The notes beneath the pieces were generated by a model, which was not told the origin of the DNA, searched no databases, and saw only the letters and a program-made list of their open reading frames with translations. A DNA stretch of 64,000 nt from Sphagnum compactum (taxonomy: Eukaryota): contig OZ234493.1 in the NCBI GenBank assembly GCA_965153455.1, positions 18,838,213 to 18,902,212 of the forward strand. Direction: 5' to 3'. Positions 33,890 to 47,416 of the stretch are shown piece by piece. The position numbers were made by a program, and so were the translations under genes. Position 1 is the stretch's first letter. Every line of letters starts with the position of its first letter.

Positions 33890-35950
33890 TGGTTGAATAA
33901 AAAGGGTTTTCTACTAGTGATATAGTTGGCAATTGATGAAAGTAATTATCTCAAATTGAAACACCTTAACAAATTAAGTTCGTAGAATGCATTAAATTGG
34001 CGAATAAACATAAGTAATTCTTATAAGCCCATACAAATTAAGCTTTCACAACTAAAGCTTTTTGAGTGCATTTAGTTGGCCAACGTACATGTAAGTAATT
34101 CTTGCAAGTTGAAGCATTTACACAAATCAAGATTTTCAAGTGCACTCAATGATGAATAGATGAAACTAGTTATTTCAAATTGAAACACCTTGACAAATGA
34201 AACACTTTGAGTGCATTCAATTCACCCATAGATGAATGTATTTCTTTCACGATGCTTTCAAGTTGTAGAAGTCTTACAAATAAAAATTTAGAATGCATTC
34301 AATTGGCCAATAGATGAGGGTAGTTCTTCCAAGTTGCAACACTTTGACAAATAAAACTTTTGGAGCGCATTCAATTAGCCAATAAATGAAGATAGTTACA
34401 ACACCTTGACAAATTAAGCTCTTCAAGTGCAGTCAATTGGCCAATAGATGAAGGTAGTTCTTTCAACTTGGAACACCCTACCAAATAAAGCTTTTGGAGT
34501 GCATACAATTGGCCAATAGATGAAAGTAGTTCTTCCAAGTTGTAACACCCTACCAAATAAAATTGTTGGAGCGCATGCAATTGGCCAATAGATGAAGGTA
34601 GTTCTTTCAAATTGGAACACTATGACAAATAAAGCCCTTGGAGTGCATTCAATTGGCCAATAGATGAAGGTAGTTCTTTCAAGTTACAACACCATGACAA
34701 ATCAAATTTTCGGAGTGCATTCAATAGGCCAATAGATGAAGGTAGTTCTTTCAACTCAGAACACCTTTGCAAATCAAACTTTTGGAGTGCATTCAATTGG
34801 CCAACAGATGAAGGTAATTCTTTCAACTCGTAACACCCTTTCAAAACAAGCTCTTGGAGTGCATTCAATTGGCCAATAAATGAAGGTACTTCTTTCAACT
34901 CCGAATACCCCCACAAATCAAGCTTTTGGAGTGCATTCAATTGGCCAATAAATGAAGGTACTTCTTTCAACTCCGAACACCCCCACAAATCAAGCTTTTA
35001 GAGTGCACTCAATTGGCCAATAGATGAAGGTAGTTCTTTCAATTCACAACACCTATGCAAAACAAGCTCTTGGAGTGCATTCAATTGGCCAATAGATGAA
35101 GGTAGTTCTTTCAAGTTGCAACACCCCCACAAATCAAGCTTTTGGAATGCATTCAATTGGCCAATAAATGAAGGTAGTTTTTTCAATTCGAAACACCTAT
35201 GCAAAACAAGCTTTTGGAGTGCATTCAATTAGCCAATAGATGAAGGTAGTTCTTTCATGTTGTAACACCCCCACAAATCAAGCTTTTGGAGTGCATATAA
35301 TTGGCCAATAGATGAAGGTAGTTCTTTCAATTCACAACACCTACGCAAAACAAGCTCTTGGAGTGCATTCAATTGGCCAATAGATGAAGGTAGTTCTTTC
35401 AAGTTGCAACACCCTTGCAAATTAAACTCTTGGAGTGCATTCAATTGGCCAATAGATGAAGGTAGTTCCTCCAAGTTGCAACACCTACATAAATTAAGAT
35501 TGTGGAGTGCATTCAATTGGCCAATAGATGAAGGTAGTTCCTCCAAGTTGCAACACCCGCATAAATCAAGATTTTGGAGTGTATTCAATTGGCCAATAGA
35601 TGAAGGTAGTTCTTTCAAGTTGGAACACTCTCGCAAATTAAACTCTTGGAGTGCATTCAATTGGCCAATAGATGAAGGTAGTTCTTTCAAGTTGGAACAC
35701 TCTCGCAAATTAAACTCTTGGAGTGCATTCAATTGGCTAATAGATGAAGGTAGTTCTTTCAACTTGGAACACCCCGACAAATCAAGCTTTTGGAGTGCAT
35801 TCAATTGGCCAATAGATGAAGGTAGTTATTTCAAGTTGGAACACTCTCGCAAATTAAACTCTGGGAGTGCATTCAATTGGCCAATAGATGAAGGTAGTTC
35901 TTTCAACTTGGAACATCCTCGCAAATTAAACTTTCCGAATGCATTTAATT
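33890..35950 (-). pseudogene. Distal, out-of-frame continuation of the NLR LRR array (~28 further 72-bp units)
   Basis: Same 24-aa unit. Deletion/frameshift near 35955-35965; in-frame stops at about 35826, 35229, 34998 and 34620; progressive decay below ~34400. Confidence 0.9.
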
Positions 35951-37125
35951 GGCTTATATCTGAGCAAACTAAAGTCTGGGAGTGCATTTAATTGGTCAAT
36001 AGATGAAGGTAGTTCTTTCAAGTTGCACCCGCCCAAACTAAACTTTTGGAGTGCATTCAATTGGCCAATAGATGAAGGTAGTTCTTTCAACTTGAAACAC
36101 CCCGACAAATCAAGCTCTTGGAGTGCATTCAATTGGCCAATAGATGAAGGTAGTTCTTTCAACTTGGAACACCCCGACAAATCAAGCTCTTGGAGTGCAT
36201 TCAATTGGCCAATAGATGAAGGTAGTTCTTTCAAGTTGCAACACCCTTGCAAATTAAACTCTTGGAGTGCATTCAATTGGCCAATAGATGAAGGTAGTTC
36301 CTCCAAGTTGTAACACCTACATAAATTAAGATTGTGGAGTGCATTCAATTGGCCAATAGATGAAGGTAGTTCTTTCAAGTTGAAACACCCTCGCAAATCA
36401 AACTCTTGGAGTGCATTCAATTGGCCAATAGATGAAGGTAGTTCTTTCATGTTGTAACACCCCCACAAATCAAGGTTTTGGAGTGCATTCAATTGGCCAA
36501 TAGATGAAGGTAGTTCTTTCAAGTTACAACACCATGTCAAATAAAGCCCTTGGAGTGCATACAATTGGCCAATAGATGAAGGTAGTTCTTTCAAGTTGGA
36601 ACACTCTTGCAAATTAAACTCTTGGAGTGCATTCAATTGGCCAATAGATGAAGGTAGTTCTTTCAACTTGGAACACTGTCGCAAATTAAACTCTTGGAGT
36701 GCATTCAATTGGCCAATAGATGAAGGTAATTCTTTCAACTCGGAACACCCCGACAAATCAAGCTCTTGGAGTGCATTCAATTGGCCAATAGATGAAGGTA
36801 GTTCTTTCAAGTTGCAACACCCTTGCAAATTAAACTCTTGGAGTGCATTCAATTGGCCAATAGATGAAGGTAGTTCTTCCAAGTTGCAACACTTGCATAA
36901 ATCAAGATTTTGGAGTGCATTCAATTGGCCAATAGATGAAGGTAGTTCTTTCAAGTTGGAACACCCTCGCAAATTAAACTCTTGGAGTGCATTTAATTGG
37001 TCAATAGATGAAGGTAGTTTTTTTAAGTTGGAACACCCTTGCAAATCAAGCTCTTGGAGTGCATTCAATTGGCCAATAGATAAAGATATTTCTTCTAAAC
37101 TTTGGCATTGTGCCAAATCAAGTAC
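33890..37125. repeat. 72-bp tandem array encoding LRR units (LQxxxLxxCxxLKELPSSIGQLNA), about 44 units
   Basis: The core GGAGTGCATTCAATTGGCCAATAGATGAAGGTAGTTCTTTCAA recurs every 72 nt; count estimated from array length. Confidence 0.95.
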
Positions 37126-40100
37126 TTGTAATTGTAAATAAGAAAATAAATTATTTGGCAACTTTTGAATCATGCATTTTTTTAGGCACAACCACTTAAC
37201 ATTATTCAAATTTCGCCCTTGGATGCAATTTTCCACAATAGTTGGTGAAGCTTCTGTTAGGTCAACCAACCTAAGGTTGCGAAATCCCTTTGAGTCGATT
37301 TGGGACAATAGAGGCAAATTGAGACATTTTTTCAATGAAATGCCCTCTAAATTTTTCACCACCTATCACATGAAATGAAAGCAAAAAGGATTATCAATGT
37401 AAAAGAACATTTCTCGTAATGCCAAATTTTATTAGAAAAATATGTATTTATAAAATCAAAATTCAAAACTAAAACATTTGGTTTTGGACAAAAAAAATCA
37501 TAGGAAATTGAAATAAAATTATAGGATTGAAGTTGTATAATGACAACCTTATCCTTTTGTAAAAAATAATTTGATTGATGTGATTTCCATATAAATCGAT
37601 TCATAATTGGTGGTTCCATTGCAATATTCTGACCCATGTCTCGTAATTGTTCATGTATGTACAAGATTCCACCTTCTTTCCATTGGATTAAAGATCTGTC
37701 TTGTAAATTTTGTAAGTCAAACTTTGGGTATTCATAATTTCCCCTCCACGCTCGACAAATTGTACTTATTTTCAAACCACCAAAAAAACAAGCAATATCC
37801 AAAAACATGTCTTGAAGTTGCTTATCCAAATGGTCATAAGAAATCCTTAATACACTCCAAAGTTTTTCATTATCATTGCCCCCAGTGAGACTTTGCCCAC
37901 TTTTCAATTTGTTTAATGCACCTTCCCACATTTTTAATTTTTTAGTATTGCACAAAAAAGAACCCAATACTTTAAGACTTAAAGGGAGCCCCCCACAAGC
38001 TTTTATAATCTTCATACATATATCGTTGAAATCTTCTATTGGAACACGATTTCCATTACCCGATGCATGTAACATAAATAGTTCCCTTGCTTGTTTTTCC
38101 TCCAAAGGTTTCATGTCCACTTTTCCATCCTCACTTACATGAGATTCCAAACTTTGCCAATTTCGACAATTCACAAGTACTCTGCTTTTAGAAGTTGGAT
38201 TTTTTGTAGCCTTATCAATGAAAATTGGCAAAGATGTAAGGTTTTCCTCCTTACCAACATTATCCACCACCACCAACACTTTCTTTAATATCATACATTG
38301 CCTAATTTTGTCAAGGTCTTCTTTTTTCACATTTTCATCTTTGCATAACCTTTTGCCACACAAATCATGTAGGAGTTGTTTTATGACATCATTGATATTG
38401 TCCTTTGAATTCACATCCTCTAAAAAACTAGACTTATCATATTGGTTGTGGAACATATGATAGAATTTGTTGCTCAAAGTGGTCTTCCCAATCCCACCCA
38501 TTCCAACCAAACCAACAATAGATTCCTTTTGTAACAAGATGTTTATGTCTTTTGCTTTGTCAATCAATGCCACCTCATGACATGGCAAAGGTGGAAACAA
38601 TATATTTTTCTGTCAAAATTCACAAAATATAAGTCATTTATATGTTATACTTCTTATTTGATAACCAATATATATGACATTGCATATGTGATACACATCA
38701 AGTGTGCTATGACCTAATGTGTATCAAATTACATGAACATATATGAAATCAAAAGATTTAGATTTCGTGTTTTTACCTCCATACATATTTTCAAACATTT
38801 TAACAATAAATCGTAACTTGGATGATCTTTGTTTGGTGGCTTGCAAATTGTCAAGTGATTAGCATCTTCAATTTTGTAATGGTTTTTGTTTGACAATCGA
38901 ATAGCTGAGGCATATTTCACTAAAATTCCCTGCATGTGCAAAAAATTAAGTTAATGGAATTCATTGATTATTTTGTTCACTTATGTTTTAACTTATAAGT
39001 AACATAGTAATTCCAAGCAGTGGTGGGAACCAAGTTTAATAACTATTAATGTTTGAATCATAATCAATTTGTGTGTAAAATTAATTTCCTTCAACCCTTT
39101 GGCAAGCAAATTATATAAATACATCACAAAGTTATTGGTTTTTAATCTCATTAATCTTACATGTTTTAATGATGTTATGATTTTCCTTATAAATATTTAT
39201 ATGGAATTGATTTGATGAAGGGACCATTTAAAACCTATTTCTTGATGTTTGAAATCAATTGAATTTCCTTTCCATCAATAGTAATTCATGAAACAAATTT
39301 CATAAAACACATGACCCATTCACCACATTAATATATTCAGAAGTATTGAGTCCTTGATCCCAAACAAATTTTGACAATACAAAAAATGTTCAACTAATGA
39401 ACCAAGTTGGATAACTTTCAATATGGTGAAATGAGAATCTTACCCAATTCTCGTCAAGTGGTAATCCTTCACCAAATGCATAAATGTTGACGTCTTCGTG
39501 AATGGCATTTTTAAAATCCTCTGAAAGGTCTTCCATTTGTGGGTTGAAAGGTTCTAAATTTTTTGAAAAACCAAGTTGGGTTGCATACTTGTTCAACAAG
39601 TTGATTTGTTGATATTGCCAAATGAAATATTTTGATAAATATTGGGTACCACCAGAATGTGGCACACCATAAAATACTACACCTTTGACATTGTTCAAAA
39701 ATGTTTTACAACATTTATGTATTTCATCATCCAAACCATTTTTTGGCCGTTGATATACATGTTTATAAGCTTCAACCACCAAGCTTTTGAGTACAAGACC
39801 TCCAAAACTATAAGCAATTAATGCCACGGGTCCATCCCACAAGGATTGATAACTACAAAATATTCAACAATGCACCAAAATTTTGTTATCAACATTGTAT
39901 TAGCATATACAAATTTATCCTATTATACTTGGAACAATTTTCCAATTCACACATGACCTAAGCCATAAGTTCATAATCAATTTGCTCATCATTTGTCATT
40001 TTTCATTTATTGATTCCATTAATGTACTTAAAAAATGTGACAACCATGTTTTGGTAAAACTATTATTATGTACAAGTATGTAGGTGTTTACATTTTTGTG

Positions 40101-40861
40101 TTAATGTACAACTCATCTTCTATGTGTTACTTTGGAAATATCGTTGAAATAAATAATAATAATTAAAAAAAATATATACCCTTTTTTTGAAATTATTTTT
40201 TTGCAATGAAATGGATGCAAATTTCTACACGTATTAATTTAATTCAATTGCATTACCAAAAATAAAGCTTCAAAAGATGCGAACTAAAAATTGTCATCAA
40301 AACCAAACTAATTGTACTATGAACTTATAGGCTTTGCTTTTATCTTCAAACAAGAACATTTTTGTTTTAGCTCCATTTTATGTTCTCCTACATGAATTTA
40401 ACAATTCAAGTAAATTGAAACTTGTTGGTGTGTATCACAATACTAGCACACATGAACAATTAACTTATGCAAAACATTTAAATTTAAAGCTGTAAACAAT
40501 CATCTTTAATGTACACAAGGAGTAGTAATTAATGTGTCCATAAATAGAGGAGATTGTCACACCTTGAATTTGCAATCAAACTTTGAATGAGGTTTTTACC
40601 AATTTCAGTCACATCATTGTGAACACTTCCCACAATGTTAGAATCATAGGACAATGATAAAATTCGAACATTGTTGTTCAAGTCTTCGGGTAACCACTTT
40701 TCTGGCCAACATATGCACTCTTCTATATCGTTGGTGGGGCGTGTTGTCCATGTTTCCTTCCATTCATCATTCGTGCCAAAAGCAATCCCATGAAAAAAAA
40801 CGATGCTCAAATTTGGATTATTGGAATTGCAAGTGGGATTTAAATCATGCACTAGATAATT
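35926..40861 (-). CDS. Alpha/beta-hydrolase-NB-ARC-LRR (HNL-type) NLR; exons 40563-40861, 39444-39852, 38777-38929, 37548-38609, 35926-37362; first exon(s) unresolved; LRR truncated by frameshift
   Basis: Five GT-AG-bounded exons join in frame. Hydrolase motifs IVFFHG, WPEKWLP, RILSLSYD, AYSFGGL, FYGVPHSG, FGE, DANHLTICKP. NB-ARC motifs GMGGIGKTT, VLVVVDNV, CGGLPLSL, FLDIACFF, IHEQLRDMG. 16 complete homogeneous LRR units. Confidence 0.9.
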
Positions 40862-42146
40862 CTGCAAAGAAAATGAAAATGAGTCAACACAATGCTTCAT
40901 ATGTTTCTTGGAAATTATTTGACTATACATGAAATTAAAAAATGCAATATACAAATTATTGTAGTTAGATAAAGGCAATAATTAGTTGAAGAGATTAAGT
41001 TTAACAAGATGACAATAATAGATGAATCGGAGAATACCAAATCTATCTTGTATGCCTAACAAATGAAGATCATTCACGTGTCATAGACTTCAAAGTTTCA
41101 AAACATAGTTCAATGAGTAAATGTTGTTACATAGTAGGTGGAACGCATGCCAAACAATAAAGGTTAATGATAAGAATTGGATTCTTTCGAGTTTGGGTTG
41201 AATAATTGAGCCATCTAGTTCGGTTCACTTGTATTTCATGACATGTCCCCAACAATTGGGCATCTGATGGCTAAGGAATTGGGACACAAACCCAATTAGA
41301 ATGTCAAAGAGCATTTTCATAATTTGTTTTAGGTTGTTGGATTAAGAGTACAAATTGAACTTAACTCATAATCTATAATGAAAGTTCCAATCCTTACAAG
41401 TTCAATATATTCCTAGTTAATGCCAAATTTTGACAAATTTCCCTTTCACCAATTCTACTTGTGATAGCAAATGAGTTGCCGACCTAATGTAAGAGGTTAT
41501 AATGATCCCTCCATTTGGTATTGTTTTAAACATCATTTCATATTGTTTTTATCTAAACAACAAGACTGGAAAGTAAGCAAAGTAAAAATGTATGACAAGG
41601 AAAGCGTGTAAATGATTGAGGACATTCAGGTGCCCTAGTGGCTAATGGGTTGGTTGCAAAGCTATTGGTTGGGAGTTCAAATCTGAACTAGACCTCCTTC
41701 TCCTGGTGCTTTGTGAGGACAATAAGCTATCATGGTTGTAAGGGTCAAGGAAAATTGTCAACACCTGAACAAAATCGAAAAAAACAAAGAAAAATCAAAC
41801 TTCAACATGTAACTTGGGAAAGCCCAAGAAAAAACTGTGCAAAGAAAGCTCATCATAAGGTCAAGAAGAAGCACCACATTGCTGTGCCATCCAGAGCTCA
41901 ATGGAGCATTTTCAGTGGGGACCAAAGGTGTCTCAATCGTAGCAGGTATGTGCACAACATCTCTCTTTCTATTTGGTGTCCCTTGTGAAAGATCAACTCC
42001 TTTTCTCTTGAGGCCATATGAATTTTCCATATTTCACACGACTGAAATTCCTATTGCTCACTGCTCTCATAAATATTTTTCTCTTGACCTTTTGGTCTCA
42101 TAAAATCTGCTACAAATCCTTTGCCATCCCAATAGCATACACAGGG

Positions 42147-45767: not shown

Positions 45768-45892
45768 GACCCGCTTTACTCTAGGAGTCCGGGCTGAAAA
45801 AACTTGGGGCCAACTTTGAGCATTTTTGGCGTTTTGTCTGGCCCCAAGTTACTAATAAATGCTACAACATTGGCCAAAGGGTTGCAAATTGA

Positions 45893-47416
45893 CATCGTGA
45901 CAATAATCAAAGGGGCAAACATCCTGGTTGATAACAAGGGATATATCAAGCTTGCAGACTTTGGTGCATCCAAAAAGGTGGTTCAACTTGCAACCATTTC
46001 TGAAGCCAAGTACATGAAAGGCACCCCTTACTGGATGGCTCCGGAGGTCATTCGTCAGACGGTTCATAACTGGCAAGCTGATATGTGGAGTGTTGGCTGC
46101 ACTGTGATTGAAATGGCGACTGGTAAACCTCCCTGGAGCCAGCAGTTCCAAGAGGTAGCTGCATTGTTCCACATTGCAACTACAAATCACACCCTCTCAT
46201 CCCTAAGCATCTTTCTCATCAAGGCAAGGATTTTCTCCTCAAGTGTCTCCAGAGGGAGCCCACACTAAGCCTTAGTGCAACTGAGCTTCTGAAGCATCCC
46301 TTTGTTTTCACCTATGAGAATCAAGGAGGATTAGATGATTCTGAGGACATACAACAACAAGCCGCAGCTGATGGTCATTTGCAGCAGCAGCAGGCAAATA
46401 GGGGAAACAAAGAATTGCGATCTGTGAAAGGTATATGGAGACAGGTTGGCCAGGACAGCTGGAAGCCAACTGGGGTGCTTGGGATGGGTTCATCCTTTTC
46501 TTTCAGAGGCTCCCCATACTCGGTGAAGAATTCTGATAACATCAACTGGGCTTCCAGAAGGGTTGGGAATTCAGACATGGACGACCTTAATTGTTTTGTG
46601 AGGTTGGACTCTGTAAGGTTTGATTCTATCCAACATGATACTTGGAATGAAAGCTAGAACCCGGTGTCAGAGCCCTCATTTGTGGATGGCAACCACTGGA
46701 GGCTTCATCTGACAGCGAATGGGGGGTTCTCTGTAGGACGACCTGTTGCTAATGGAGATCTTGCAAGCATGGGGACCCCAGAATGTGAGCATAGTCTCGG
46801 GGAGAGGGGATGGTCTCTGCAGCAGCAGGAGGAAGATGAAGTGACAGCATCCAAGATTCGTGCCTTCTTGGATGAGAAGGCTTTGGAGCTCAAAAGGCTC
46901 CGGACACCACTCTATGAGGAACTTTATGAGACCTCAATGAGGAGCTCAGAAATTCCTGCTTCAACTGGGCCTCCCGAGAGCTTTATTGCACCTTCGAACC
47001 CTGCTATTGCGAAACAACAAACGCACAGCCCCAGCAAATCACCGGGCGGTCTCAGTGGAAGGTCAATCGGAATGAGAAGCAGCCAAGAGAGTGAGACGAG
47101 CGCGAGTTCTGGGAGCTCCAGTGGAACTGGAGCACCTTCTCCCAGTGTCAATTGTTCCCCTCTTTTGGAAATTCCGTCAGCAAGGTTGAATGAATGGAAC
47201 GGTCTTATTAATGACGCACAGCAACCGCTACCAAGCCCTCGTCTGAGTTCTAGTGAGCGTCAAAGGCTCTGGAGAGAGGAGCTTGAGCAGGAGCTTAGAA
47301 TGAAGCGAGAGGAGAAACGGAAACAATTGGCTAAACAGGGCTCTCCAATGTCTCCACCCAACTCAAAGGGGCTTCAACGACCTGCCAGTCGTCTGGCTAC
47401 TGCTTCCCAAATTTAG
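45893..47416 (+). pseudogene. NPK1: NPK1/ANP-type MAPKKK pseudogene, intronless and 5'-truncated
   Basis: HRD[+4 nt][44 protein letters not shown]. 1-nt deletion at ~46185 before SHPLIP...LLKHPFV; TAG at 46655-46657. C-terminal KIRAFLDEKALELKRLRTPLYEE and SERQRLWREELEQEL are typical of NPK1/ANP. The kinase N-lobe is absent. Confidence 0.9.

Follow-up and report, generated by a model that had tools for sequence, protein, structure and literature searches.

Gene structure, relatives and candidate catalytic residues of an alpha/beta-hydrolase-headed NLR from Sphagnum compactum

Background

Plant receptors of the nucleotide-binding, leucine-rich repeat type (NLRs) that carry an alpha/beta-hydrolase as their N-terminal domain (Hyd-NLRs or HNLs) are described as bryophyte-specific (PMC12512272) and as prominent in Marchantia, Sphagnum and Ceratodon (PMC10952240). 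Two isolated Hyd domains of Marchantia are reported to cause death resembling the hypersensitive response (HR) together with ion leakage in N. benthamiana, and a linker helix is mentioned for the Marchantia heads (Chia et al. 2024, PMC11218826). The same article places most of the bryophyte hydrolase-NLRs near the TIR-NLRs (PMC11218826). In this work we have analyzed a gene of this type on the minus strand (42030-35926) of a stretch of 64,000 nucleotides of Sphagnum compactum DNA (contig OZ234493.1, positions 18,838,213 to 18,902,212), referred to below as the window. A preliminary description of the window had pointed out that hydrolase-NLRs occur in bryophytes, and the existence of such a class is borne out by what these three sources report (PMC11218826, PMC10952240, PMC12512272).

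Enzymatic or enzyme-like heads are familiar from other receptors and immune proteins. Roq1 and RPP1 (7jlv, 7crb) combine an enzyme head with NB-ARC and leucine-rich repeats (LRRs) and are the closest solved relatives of the gene in the NB-ARC, the winged-helix domain (WHD) and the LRRs, although their head is a TIR NADase and not a serine-hydrolase fold, and no counterpart of their post-LRR C-JID domain was seen in the gene, whose relatives end inside the LRRs. EDS1, PAD4 and SAG101 have a lipase-like alpha/beta-hydrolase domain with a Ser-acid-His triad and serve TNL-type (TIR-NLR) immunity by a non-catalytic function. They differ from the present protein in being separate, EP domain-containing proteins that are not fused to an NLR; comparison with EDS1-type lipase-like proteins is also raised in PMC10952240. 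Fungal NACHT NLRs likewise have a hydrolase as the head of a STAND NTPase, which in their case is a NACHT domain followed by repeats other than LRRs (PMC4986451), whereas NB-ARC and LRRs are used here.

The head itself has its counterparts among DUF676 (PF05057) and PGAP1-like (PF07819) hydrolases, including SERAC1-type proteins, with which it has the motifs FxHG, GxSxGG and TPHxG in common; the fusion to NB-ARC-LRR sets it apart, and the transmembrane and ARM parts of SERAC1 are absent. In structure, the best match is the domain at the N-terminus of PlaB from Legionella pneumophila (6zth/6zti), for which a preprint describes a triad of Ser85, Asp203 and His251 beneath a lid and an activity set by the oligomeric state.

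The gene almost certainly belongs to the bryophyte hydrolase-NLR class, as one of its Sphagnum representatives. The explanation that we favour, at a probability of about 0.55, is a TNL-like sensor in which a DUF676/PGAP1-like head replaces the TIR domain and hydrolysis is the output. The locus is not special within its class, and the class has already been published, Sphagnum included.

Results and discussion

The gene encodes a hydrolase-NB-ARC-LRR protein

The gene model comprises six coding exons and 1171 codons with no internal stop, all introns being of the GT-AG type. In the encoded protein an alpha/beta-hydrolase is followed by an NB-ARC domain and then by sixteen LRRs of 24 residues. 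Five hydrolase motifs had been claimed, and all were found on the minus strand in the frames described: FFHG lies in the stop-to-stop frame 40529-40981, AYSFGG, FYGVPHSG and FGE in 39390-39863, and DANHLTICKP in 38729-38950. The corresponding frames for NB-ARC and LRRs are 37356-38612 and 35926-37362. The hydrolase fold is spread over three exons, as proposed, and the splicing in frame to NB-ARC and LRRs holds, since the GT-AG joins give a single open frame without an internal stop. Together with the Pfam matches and the relatives described below, the gene model confirms that an alpha/beta-hydrolase takes the place of TIR or CC in this receptor. The E values obtained with the NB-ARC, LRR and hydrolase exons are far outside what chance would produce.

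Both ends of the gene had to be revised. Position 40861, previously taken as the edge of the gene, is a splice acceptor, and a 52-codon exon at 42030-41875 (exon 0) had been overlooked. Full-length relatives are colinear with a model starting at the ATG at 40900 from residue 15 on and have about 52 or about 103 additional N-terminal residues; a further 5′ exon was postulated because the relatives align only from that residue and carry longer N-termini. With the N-termini of 12 relatives as queries, tblastn placed this exon at 42030-41815/41863 with 68-82% identity. The ATG at 40900 was ruled out as the start by the upstream exon of the relatives and by contigs from RNA libraries that use the acceptor at 40861, and an exon 0 end at 41878 was replaced by 41875, the position joined to 40861 in all four RNA runs. 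At the other end, the stop at 35926 follows a break in an array of 72-bp repeats, beyond which decayed units had escaped notice.

Exon 0 contains basic runs resembling a nuclear-localisation signal: KRKG and NRKRD in this gene, PPKRKRD in the majority of relatives. A fixed N-myristoylation signal was also considered for it and is not supported, the exon starting with MG in 25 relatives, with ME in 19 and otherwise in 16.

Fold and catalytic residues of the head

The fold was predicted with AlphaFold2 for P0001, a relative that stands in for the head of the window; it is a hydrolase-only gene model of 325 amino acids, 86% identical in exon 2. The model, based on an alignment of 47 sequences, reached a predicted local distance difference test score (pLDDT) of 85.2 and a predicted template-modelling score (pTM) of 0.86. 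In it strand 132-137 and helix 139-156 flank Ser138 (Ser167 of the window), Glu251 (Glu280) terminates strand 245-251 at the end of beta7, and His284 (His313) is located in the loop after strand 276-279, following beta8. The cap inserted between beta6 and beta7 is made up of helices 193-239, and a long helix (296-323) heads towards the NB-ARC domain, matching the linker helix of the Marchantia heads. The predicted structure is thus an alpha/beta-hydrolase fold with Ser, Glu and His at the canonical elbow, post-beta7 and post-beta8 positions. The elbow A-Y-S167-F-G has the small-x-Ser-x-small pattern and is accompanied by the FFH76G oxyanion motif. The claim of an apparently intact Ser-Glu-His triad is borne out as far as all three residues are present, strongly conserved and, by predicted secondary structure, canonically placed.

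When the model was compared by VIA-align with 48,161 representative chains, 430 gave Z≥8, and the 50 matches listed were all alpha/beta-hydrolases with Z of 15-20. The top match was the phospholipase PlaB (Z 19.6-19.9, root-mean-square deviation 3.0-3.1 Å over 224-227 residues), also when the comparison was made over the top 1000 of Foldseek, followed by the lipase BlEst2 (Z 18.0-18.2) and the general alpha/beta-hydrolase pack at 17.2 or below. With Foldseek against PDB, the matches listed were all generic alpha/beta-hydrolases at TM 0.4-0.5 and E about 1e-6, and did not include PlaB. A long helix follows the core in both PlaB and the P0001 model. PlaB differs in having a THSTG elbow with Ser/Asp/His, as opposed to AYSFG with Ser/Glu/His in the window, in its own C-terminal beta-sandwich domain and its control by NAD(H), and it gave no sequence-level match to the heads of the window's family in the PDB searches.

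Relatives of the head

With exon 2 as the query, a word-index search yielded 123 proteins at E≤1e-3 (best 7.7e-75) with top identities of 86-88%, and the matches with named species all came from Sphagnum: S. fallax, S. jensenii, S. compactum, S. troendelagicum, S. tenellum, S. balticum and S. magellanicum. Annotated Sphagnum proteins can be aligned colinearly with the gene model over about 900-1150 residues, with 76-84% identity, and the gene is one member among more than 100 Sphagnum paralogue clusters. It shares with the described Hyd-NLRs of Marchantia, Sphagnum and Ceratodon the hydrolase, the linker helix, the NB-ARC near the TIR-NLR type, the LRRs and the bryophyte host. It is nevertheless a separate paralogue, as none was found above about 88% identity in exon 2 or above 84% in long alignments, and its LRR array is truncated. 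The Sphagnum-type heads have the elbow A/G-Y-S-F-G-G and the His motif D-A-N-H, those of the liverwort type G-H-S-x-G-G and x-D-H.

A HMMER search of the full library with P0001 extended the family to 1325 proteins at E≤1e-3, of which 306 reached E≤1e-10. Twenty-two head-only proteins were scanned against Pfam at E≤0.01 and matched 13 families in total, with DUF676 found in 20 of them (best E 4.6e-10), Abhydrolase_6 in 11, PGAP1 in seven and LCAT in four. The closest relatives of the window score 17-26 bits for DUF676, around the cut-off of 20.3 (P0001 17.0, P0033 21.2, P0070 22.9 and P0092 25.7). The neighbours of P0001 in the ESM Atlas were DUF676 clusters of Streptophyta and Ascomycota, a SERAC1 cluster (0.95) and a 'DUF676/NACHT_sigma' cluster of Ascomycota (0.94). 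These matches bear out, at the level of the superfamily, the resemblance to SERAC1/PGAP1-like proteins that had been noticed from the motifs. The head alone found nothing significant in PDB by sequence (best E 0.3). The search with a profile of the family was swamped by NB-ARC and LRR matches and was repeated with an alignment of the heads only, which gave BlEst2 (E 8.5e-4) and 5ah0 (E 9.6e-4), aligned at the elbow and TPHxG, and no others below 1e-3.

Further relatives are Hyd-NLRs of the liverwort Calypogeia. Among 33 long full-coverage representatives, chosen from the 150 matches listed, the head is followed by NB-ARC in 23, mostly with LRRs, by caspase in two, B_lectin in two, DnaJ in one, a kinase alone in one and nothing further in four. 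The caspase-fused relatives are Marchantia proteins, and a member of one such cluster is called 'protein SERAC1' by NCBI. This range of partners suggests that the hydrolase head is a portable effector or death module. P0233, which matched the query at E 5.3e-17, belongs to a 90% cluster with a fungal protein of the Sordariales. The proposed resemblance to fungal SesB-like lipases is a tentative one: the Sordariales cluster-mate and the DUF676/NACHT_sigma neighbour agree with it, and 'SesB-like' is a label that we presume to fit the fungal matches.

The same head occurs in P0149, P0164 (Marchantia), P0184, P0202, P0210 (Calypogeia), P0167, P0055, P0062 (Sphagnum). The fusion partners in these liverwort and moss proteins are a metacaspase (Peptidase_C14), B_lectin, DnaJ and a protein kinase, besides NB-ARC elsewhere.

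Two bacterial models were matched by the heads. All 22 hit the PADLOC defence-candidate model PDLC02918 'DUF626_VIII', over about 220 profile positions and with a best E of 3.5e-14; four of the 22 hit the Lamassu effector LmuA. To judge from these profile matches, the heads of bryophyte NLRs may be linked to anti-phage effectors of bacteria.

Conservation of the catalytic set

Residues were counted in the hmmsearch alignment of the fetched proteins, hits that cover all three triad columns being regarded as complete. The 96 complete Sphagnum-type domain hits carry S-E-H in 92 cases, C-E-H in three and T-E-H in one, and the oxyanion column holds His in 102 of the 104 Sphagnum domain hits that cover it. 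Of 66 complete hits in the wider set of representatives, 42 have S-E-H and 14 a Cys nucleophile, the other 10 having Gly, Asp or Lys instead; Cys is thus the commonest substitute for Ser (14 of 24 non-Ser cases). The alignment of the 22 heads shows no variation at W61, W75, G140, G141, P187, H284 and C288 (P0001 numbering), while conservation reaches at least 90% at H47, H188 and E251.

The same pattern is seen in 80 related loci (L001-L080) taken from a metagenome collection. Hydrolase exons 1-3 occur in order and with similar intron lengths in 63 of them, and 54 of these 63 encode H-S-E-H. The median ratio of nonsynonymous to synonymous substitution rates (dN/dS) in exon 2 is 0.44 for the window against 75 loci and 0.57 over 2767 pairs. 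By these measures the family is one of fast turnover under moderate purifying selection, with the catalytic set as the best-kept part of the head.

An in-frame stop is present in 15 of the 75 gapless exon-2 copies among the loci, and three have Asn in place of the nucleophilic Ser. The family carries a heavy load of pseudogenes.

Spliced transcripts of the family

RNA evidence was drawn from 23 public runs, each holding at most 0.25 of the sampled words, and four runs from four studies were mapped. The contigs are unitigs of about 70-190 nt, at least 95% alike, from metatranscriptomes with many paralogues, and the intron bins show depth as well. Contigs joining 41875 to 40861 occurred in 4/4 runs, with 1013 nt (40862-41874) skipped between GT and AG on the minus strand. 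Three contigs, with a shorter side of 24 nt, skip exactly 38610-38776 (167 nt, exon 3 to exon 4) in 2/4 runs. For introns 1, 2 and 4 no joint was among those listed in the four runs, an absence that short contigs and intron depth make uninformative. Two additional joints (39676-39770 and 40123-40234, one contig each) match no predicted intron and were taken as indels of paralogues. At 40629, 39767 and 38597, where the window deviates from the family (Gly130, Tyr181 and Phe344), the RNA contigs show the consensus letter; they therefore stem from close paralogues or orthologues.

The related loci agree with the predicted splicing. Sixty-five of them contain exons 3 and 4, separated by a gap whose median length, 167 nt, equals that of the intron in the window. 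Contig L015 (1204 nt) contains exons 0-1-2-3-4 of a paralogue with no introns, joined at the predicted junctions, and is 87% identical to the window over 290 residues, free of gaps across the 1/2, 2/3 and 3/4 junctions. Its exon 1 is interrupted prematurely, an Arg codon having become a stop (...NNNV*ILSLSYD), and the contig is either an expressed pseudogene or a processed retrocopy; the spliced form is recorded either way. A spliced transcript joining the hydrolase and NB-ARC exons has accordingly been found for the family, in the RNA contigs and in L015, its source being close relatives of the gene.

NB-ARC and LRR parts

Exon 4 matches NB-ARC (PF00931) with E 9.6e-31 and 107.3 bits against a cut-off of 23.5, and WHD_ROQ1 with E 1.7e-11. 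Its closest solved relative is the TNL Roq1 (E 7.2e-33), the best match among NLRs of the CC type being 2.3e-18, and the family profile finds Roq1 in PDB with E 2.1e-100; this agrees with the position near the TIR-NLRs reported for most bryophyte hydrolase-NLRs (PMC11218826). The hallmarks of a plant NLR are all present: NB-ARC, P-loop, Walker B, GLPL and MHD-type motifs, and C-terminal LRRs in frame. Walker B (38262-38264 and the next codon) reads VVVD-N and not D-D, and IHE or MHE in the place of MHD is the family norm (29 of 40 matched).

Exon 5 matches LRR_14 with E 4.1e-63, and Tandem Repeats Finder detects a 72-bp array of 15.6 copies at 35975-37094, in frame. The array is broken at about 35954-35974 by a frameshift, which is followed by the stop at 35926. 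The LRRs of P0033 still align by tblastn to 34287-35953 with 54-74% identity, and this segment has four in-frame stops (35826, 35229, 34998 and 34620) as well as another frameshift near 34400. It is the decayed distal part of an LRR array that once had about 39 units. Inspection of the C-termini of 25 relatives showed that several (P0045, P0017, P0047 and P0054) also end in frame-shifted LRR sequence, and ragged LRR ends are for this reason regarded as a trait of the family. The coordinates of the coding exons and of the decayed repeats are collected in Table 1.

Table 1 Coding exons of the hydrolase-NLR gene and the repeats downstream of it (positions of the window)
Feature	Position	Strand	Content
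Exon 0	41875..42030	-	52 codons, MENSYGLKRKG...WHSNV; N-terminal extension ahead of the hydrolase fold
Exon 1	40563..40861	-	First part of the hydrolase; FFHG with oxyanion-hole His76-Gly77, His codon 40792-40790
Exon 2	39444..39852	-	Hydrolase core; AYSFGG elbow with Ser167 (39809-39807), FYGVPHSG with His217, cap helices, FGE with Glu280 (39470-39468)
Exon 3	38777..38929	-	Final hydrolase strand, DANH with His313 (38857-38855), invariant Cys317-Lys-Pro, start of the linker helix
Exon 4	37548..38609	-	NB-ARC and winged helix; GMGGIGKT (Lys381), VVVDN (Asp455-Asn456), GGLPLSL, IHE replacing MHD (His658)
Exon 5	35926..37362	-	LRR domain with about 16 24-residue units; stop 35926-35928
Decayed LRR continuation	34287..35953	-	23.3 further 72-bp units in a different frame

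About 4 kb upstream of the gene and divergent from it lies a protein-kinase exon (45798-46268, plus strand; Pkinase E 1.8e-25) with open frames continuing to 47416. A role in a hydrolase-kinase fusion was rejected for it, as it has 32% identity to the fusion kinases and the window contains no second hydrolase. On this comparison it is probably an unrelated neighbour.

Proposed mode of action

In the scheme that we favour, recognition of a ligand by the LRRs would lead to oligomerisation of the NB-ARC domain, tetramer-like by analogy with Roq1 and RPP1. The heads would thereby be clustered and their active sites opened or completed, in the manner of the oligomer-controlled lid of PlaB. The head would then act as a serine esterase, most likely cleaving a lipid or phospholipid ester, and hydrolysis may damage the membrane or free a lipid signal, leading to cell death. 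Such an output would fit the HR-like death and ion leakage obtained with two isolated Marchantia Hyd domains. Beyond the hydrolase-like fold and its residues, every step here is one that we infer. To judge from its conserved residues, the head of the family is probably competent in catalysis. A lipid substrate, to which fold and hidden Markov model (HMM) similarity to lipases and phospholipases are the sole pointers, is by this analogy a candidate at somewhat worse than even odds. We regard as doubtful the broader idea that bryophyte NLRs, the liverwort and moss fusions with metacaspase, lectin, kinase and DnaJ, fungal NACHT receptors and bacterial defence candidates share one cross-kingdom 'executioner lipase' module of the DUF676 type that would become a PlaB-like phospholipase upon oligomerisation and kill the cell. 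If this idea were true, the hydrolase heads would constitute a third enzymatic output of NLRs, beside the TIR NADases and the CC channels.

A number of points weigh against hydrolysis as the output of this gene. That a triad is conserved is no proof of catalysis. EDS1 and PAD4 keep theirs without needing it. The modelled structure is that of a relative and not of the window's spliced protein, and the convergence of Ser, Glu and His in three dimensions is putative, the residues having been placed from predicted secondary structure. The likeness to PlaB is found at 16-17% identity, with Asp there and Glu here. Exon 2 alone matches DUF676 with E 0.012 and 15.6 bits, below the cut-off, which P0001 likewise fails to reach. 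The RNA contigs come from close relatives, and transcription of this particular copy is putative. The copy has had its LRR array cut short and bears 15 substitutions at sites conserved to 90% or more (35 paralogues, first 760 residues), for example P292K, F521S and H526R in a 1170-residue numbering that runs one below the final 1171-residue numbering. The precise biochemical function of Hyd-NLR heads is described as little known (PMC10952240), no catalytic mutant of a hydrolase head was found in the main text of PMC11218826, and in the literature from 2023 on nothing relevant was found on the catalytic triad of Marchantia NLR hydrolases.

Alternative explanations

The head could instead be a non-catalytic scaffold like EDS1 and PAD4. 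Once oligomerised, it would bind to another protein, to a small molecule or to a membrane, and its triad would be structural or ligand-binding. The 10 heads of the wider set in which Gly, Asp or Lys replaces the nucleophile, and which for this reason cannot be serine or cysteine hydrolases, persist as genes, and fusions to lectin, DnaJ, kinase and caspase suit an adaptor as well as an enzyme. We nevertheless hold a scaffold to be improbable, because the HG motif, Ser, Glu and His are conserved jointly in 92 of the 96 complete Sphagnum hits and because the usual replacement of Ser is Cys, which is also a nucleophile; in addition, the 13 Pfam families to which the 22 heads gave matches do not include the EDS1-type Lipase_3 (PF01764), and the nearest folds and HMMs are those of active lipases and phospholipases. 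Far less credible still is an integrated decoy, that is, a hydrolase copied from a host lipase targeted by pathogen effectors and serving as bait and not as output. NLRs do integrate unusual domains, and NLRs with integrated domains are reported to be expanded in non-flowering plants (PMC11218826), but in essentially every member of the family the hydrolase occupies the N-terminal signalling position with no other signalling head, isolated Marchantia Hyd domains are reported to suffice for cell death (PMC11218826), and the module is also found at the head of STAND or defence proteins in fungi and bacteria.

A different question is whether this copy still works, or is a dying or dead paralogue in a birth-and-death family, with the distal two-thirds of the LRR array gone and no function left as a receptor, whatever its head might be capable of. 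The break in the array with its frameshift and the stop at 35926, the 23.3 following units with four stops and a second frameshift, the 15 substitutions and the D-N of Walker B all speak for decay, as do the RNA contigs that bear the consensus and not the window's letters at three positions, and pseudogenes are common in the family, to which the stops in exon-2 copies and the premature stop of L015 testify. On the other side, all 1171 codons are open over six exons with canonical splice sites, the hydrolase and NB-ARC motifs are complete and sixteen LRRs are left. Frame-shifted LRR ends are also seen in the four relatives named above, D-N in Walker B recurs in 10 of 59 paralogues, and the exon-2 dN/dS of 0.44 is not about 1. 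We consider loss of function in this copy unlikely, though it deserves to be taken seriously.

Conclusions

How hydrolase-headed NLRs signal is stated as an open question in the plant-immunity literature (PMC10952240). The enzyme-effector reading given in the preliminary description is a reasonable one and in line with present views. For the favoured TNL-like sensor with hydrolysis as its output, the conservation of the catalytic set in more than 95% of the complete Sphagnum copies, the replacement of Ser by Cys, the PlaB fold and the fungal and bacterial defence contexts argue for catalysis, probably on a lipid ester. The question of the substrate belongs to the class as a whole and not to this locus, and better-placed model genes are available in Marchantia; the conserved HG, Ser, Glu and His name the residues to mutate.

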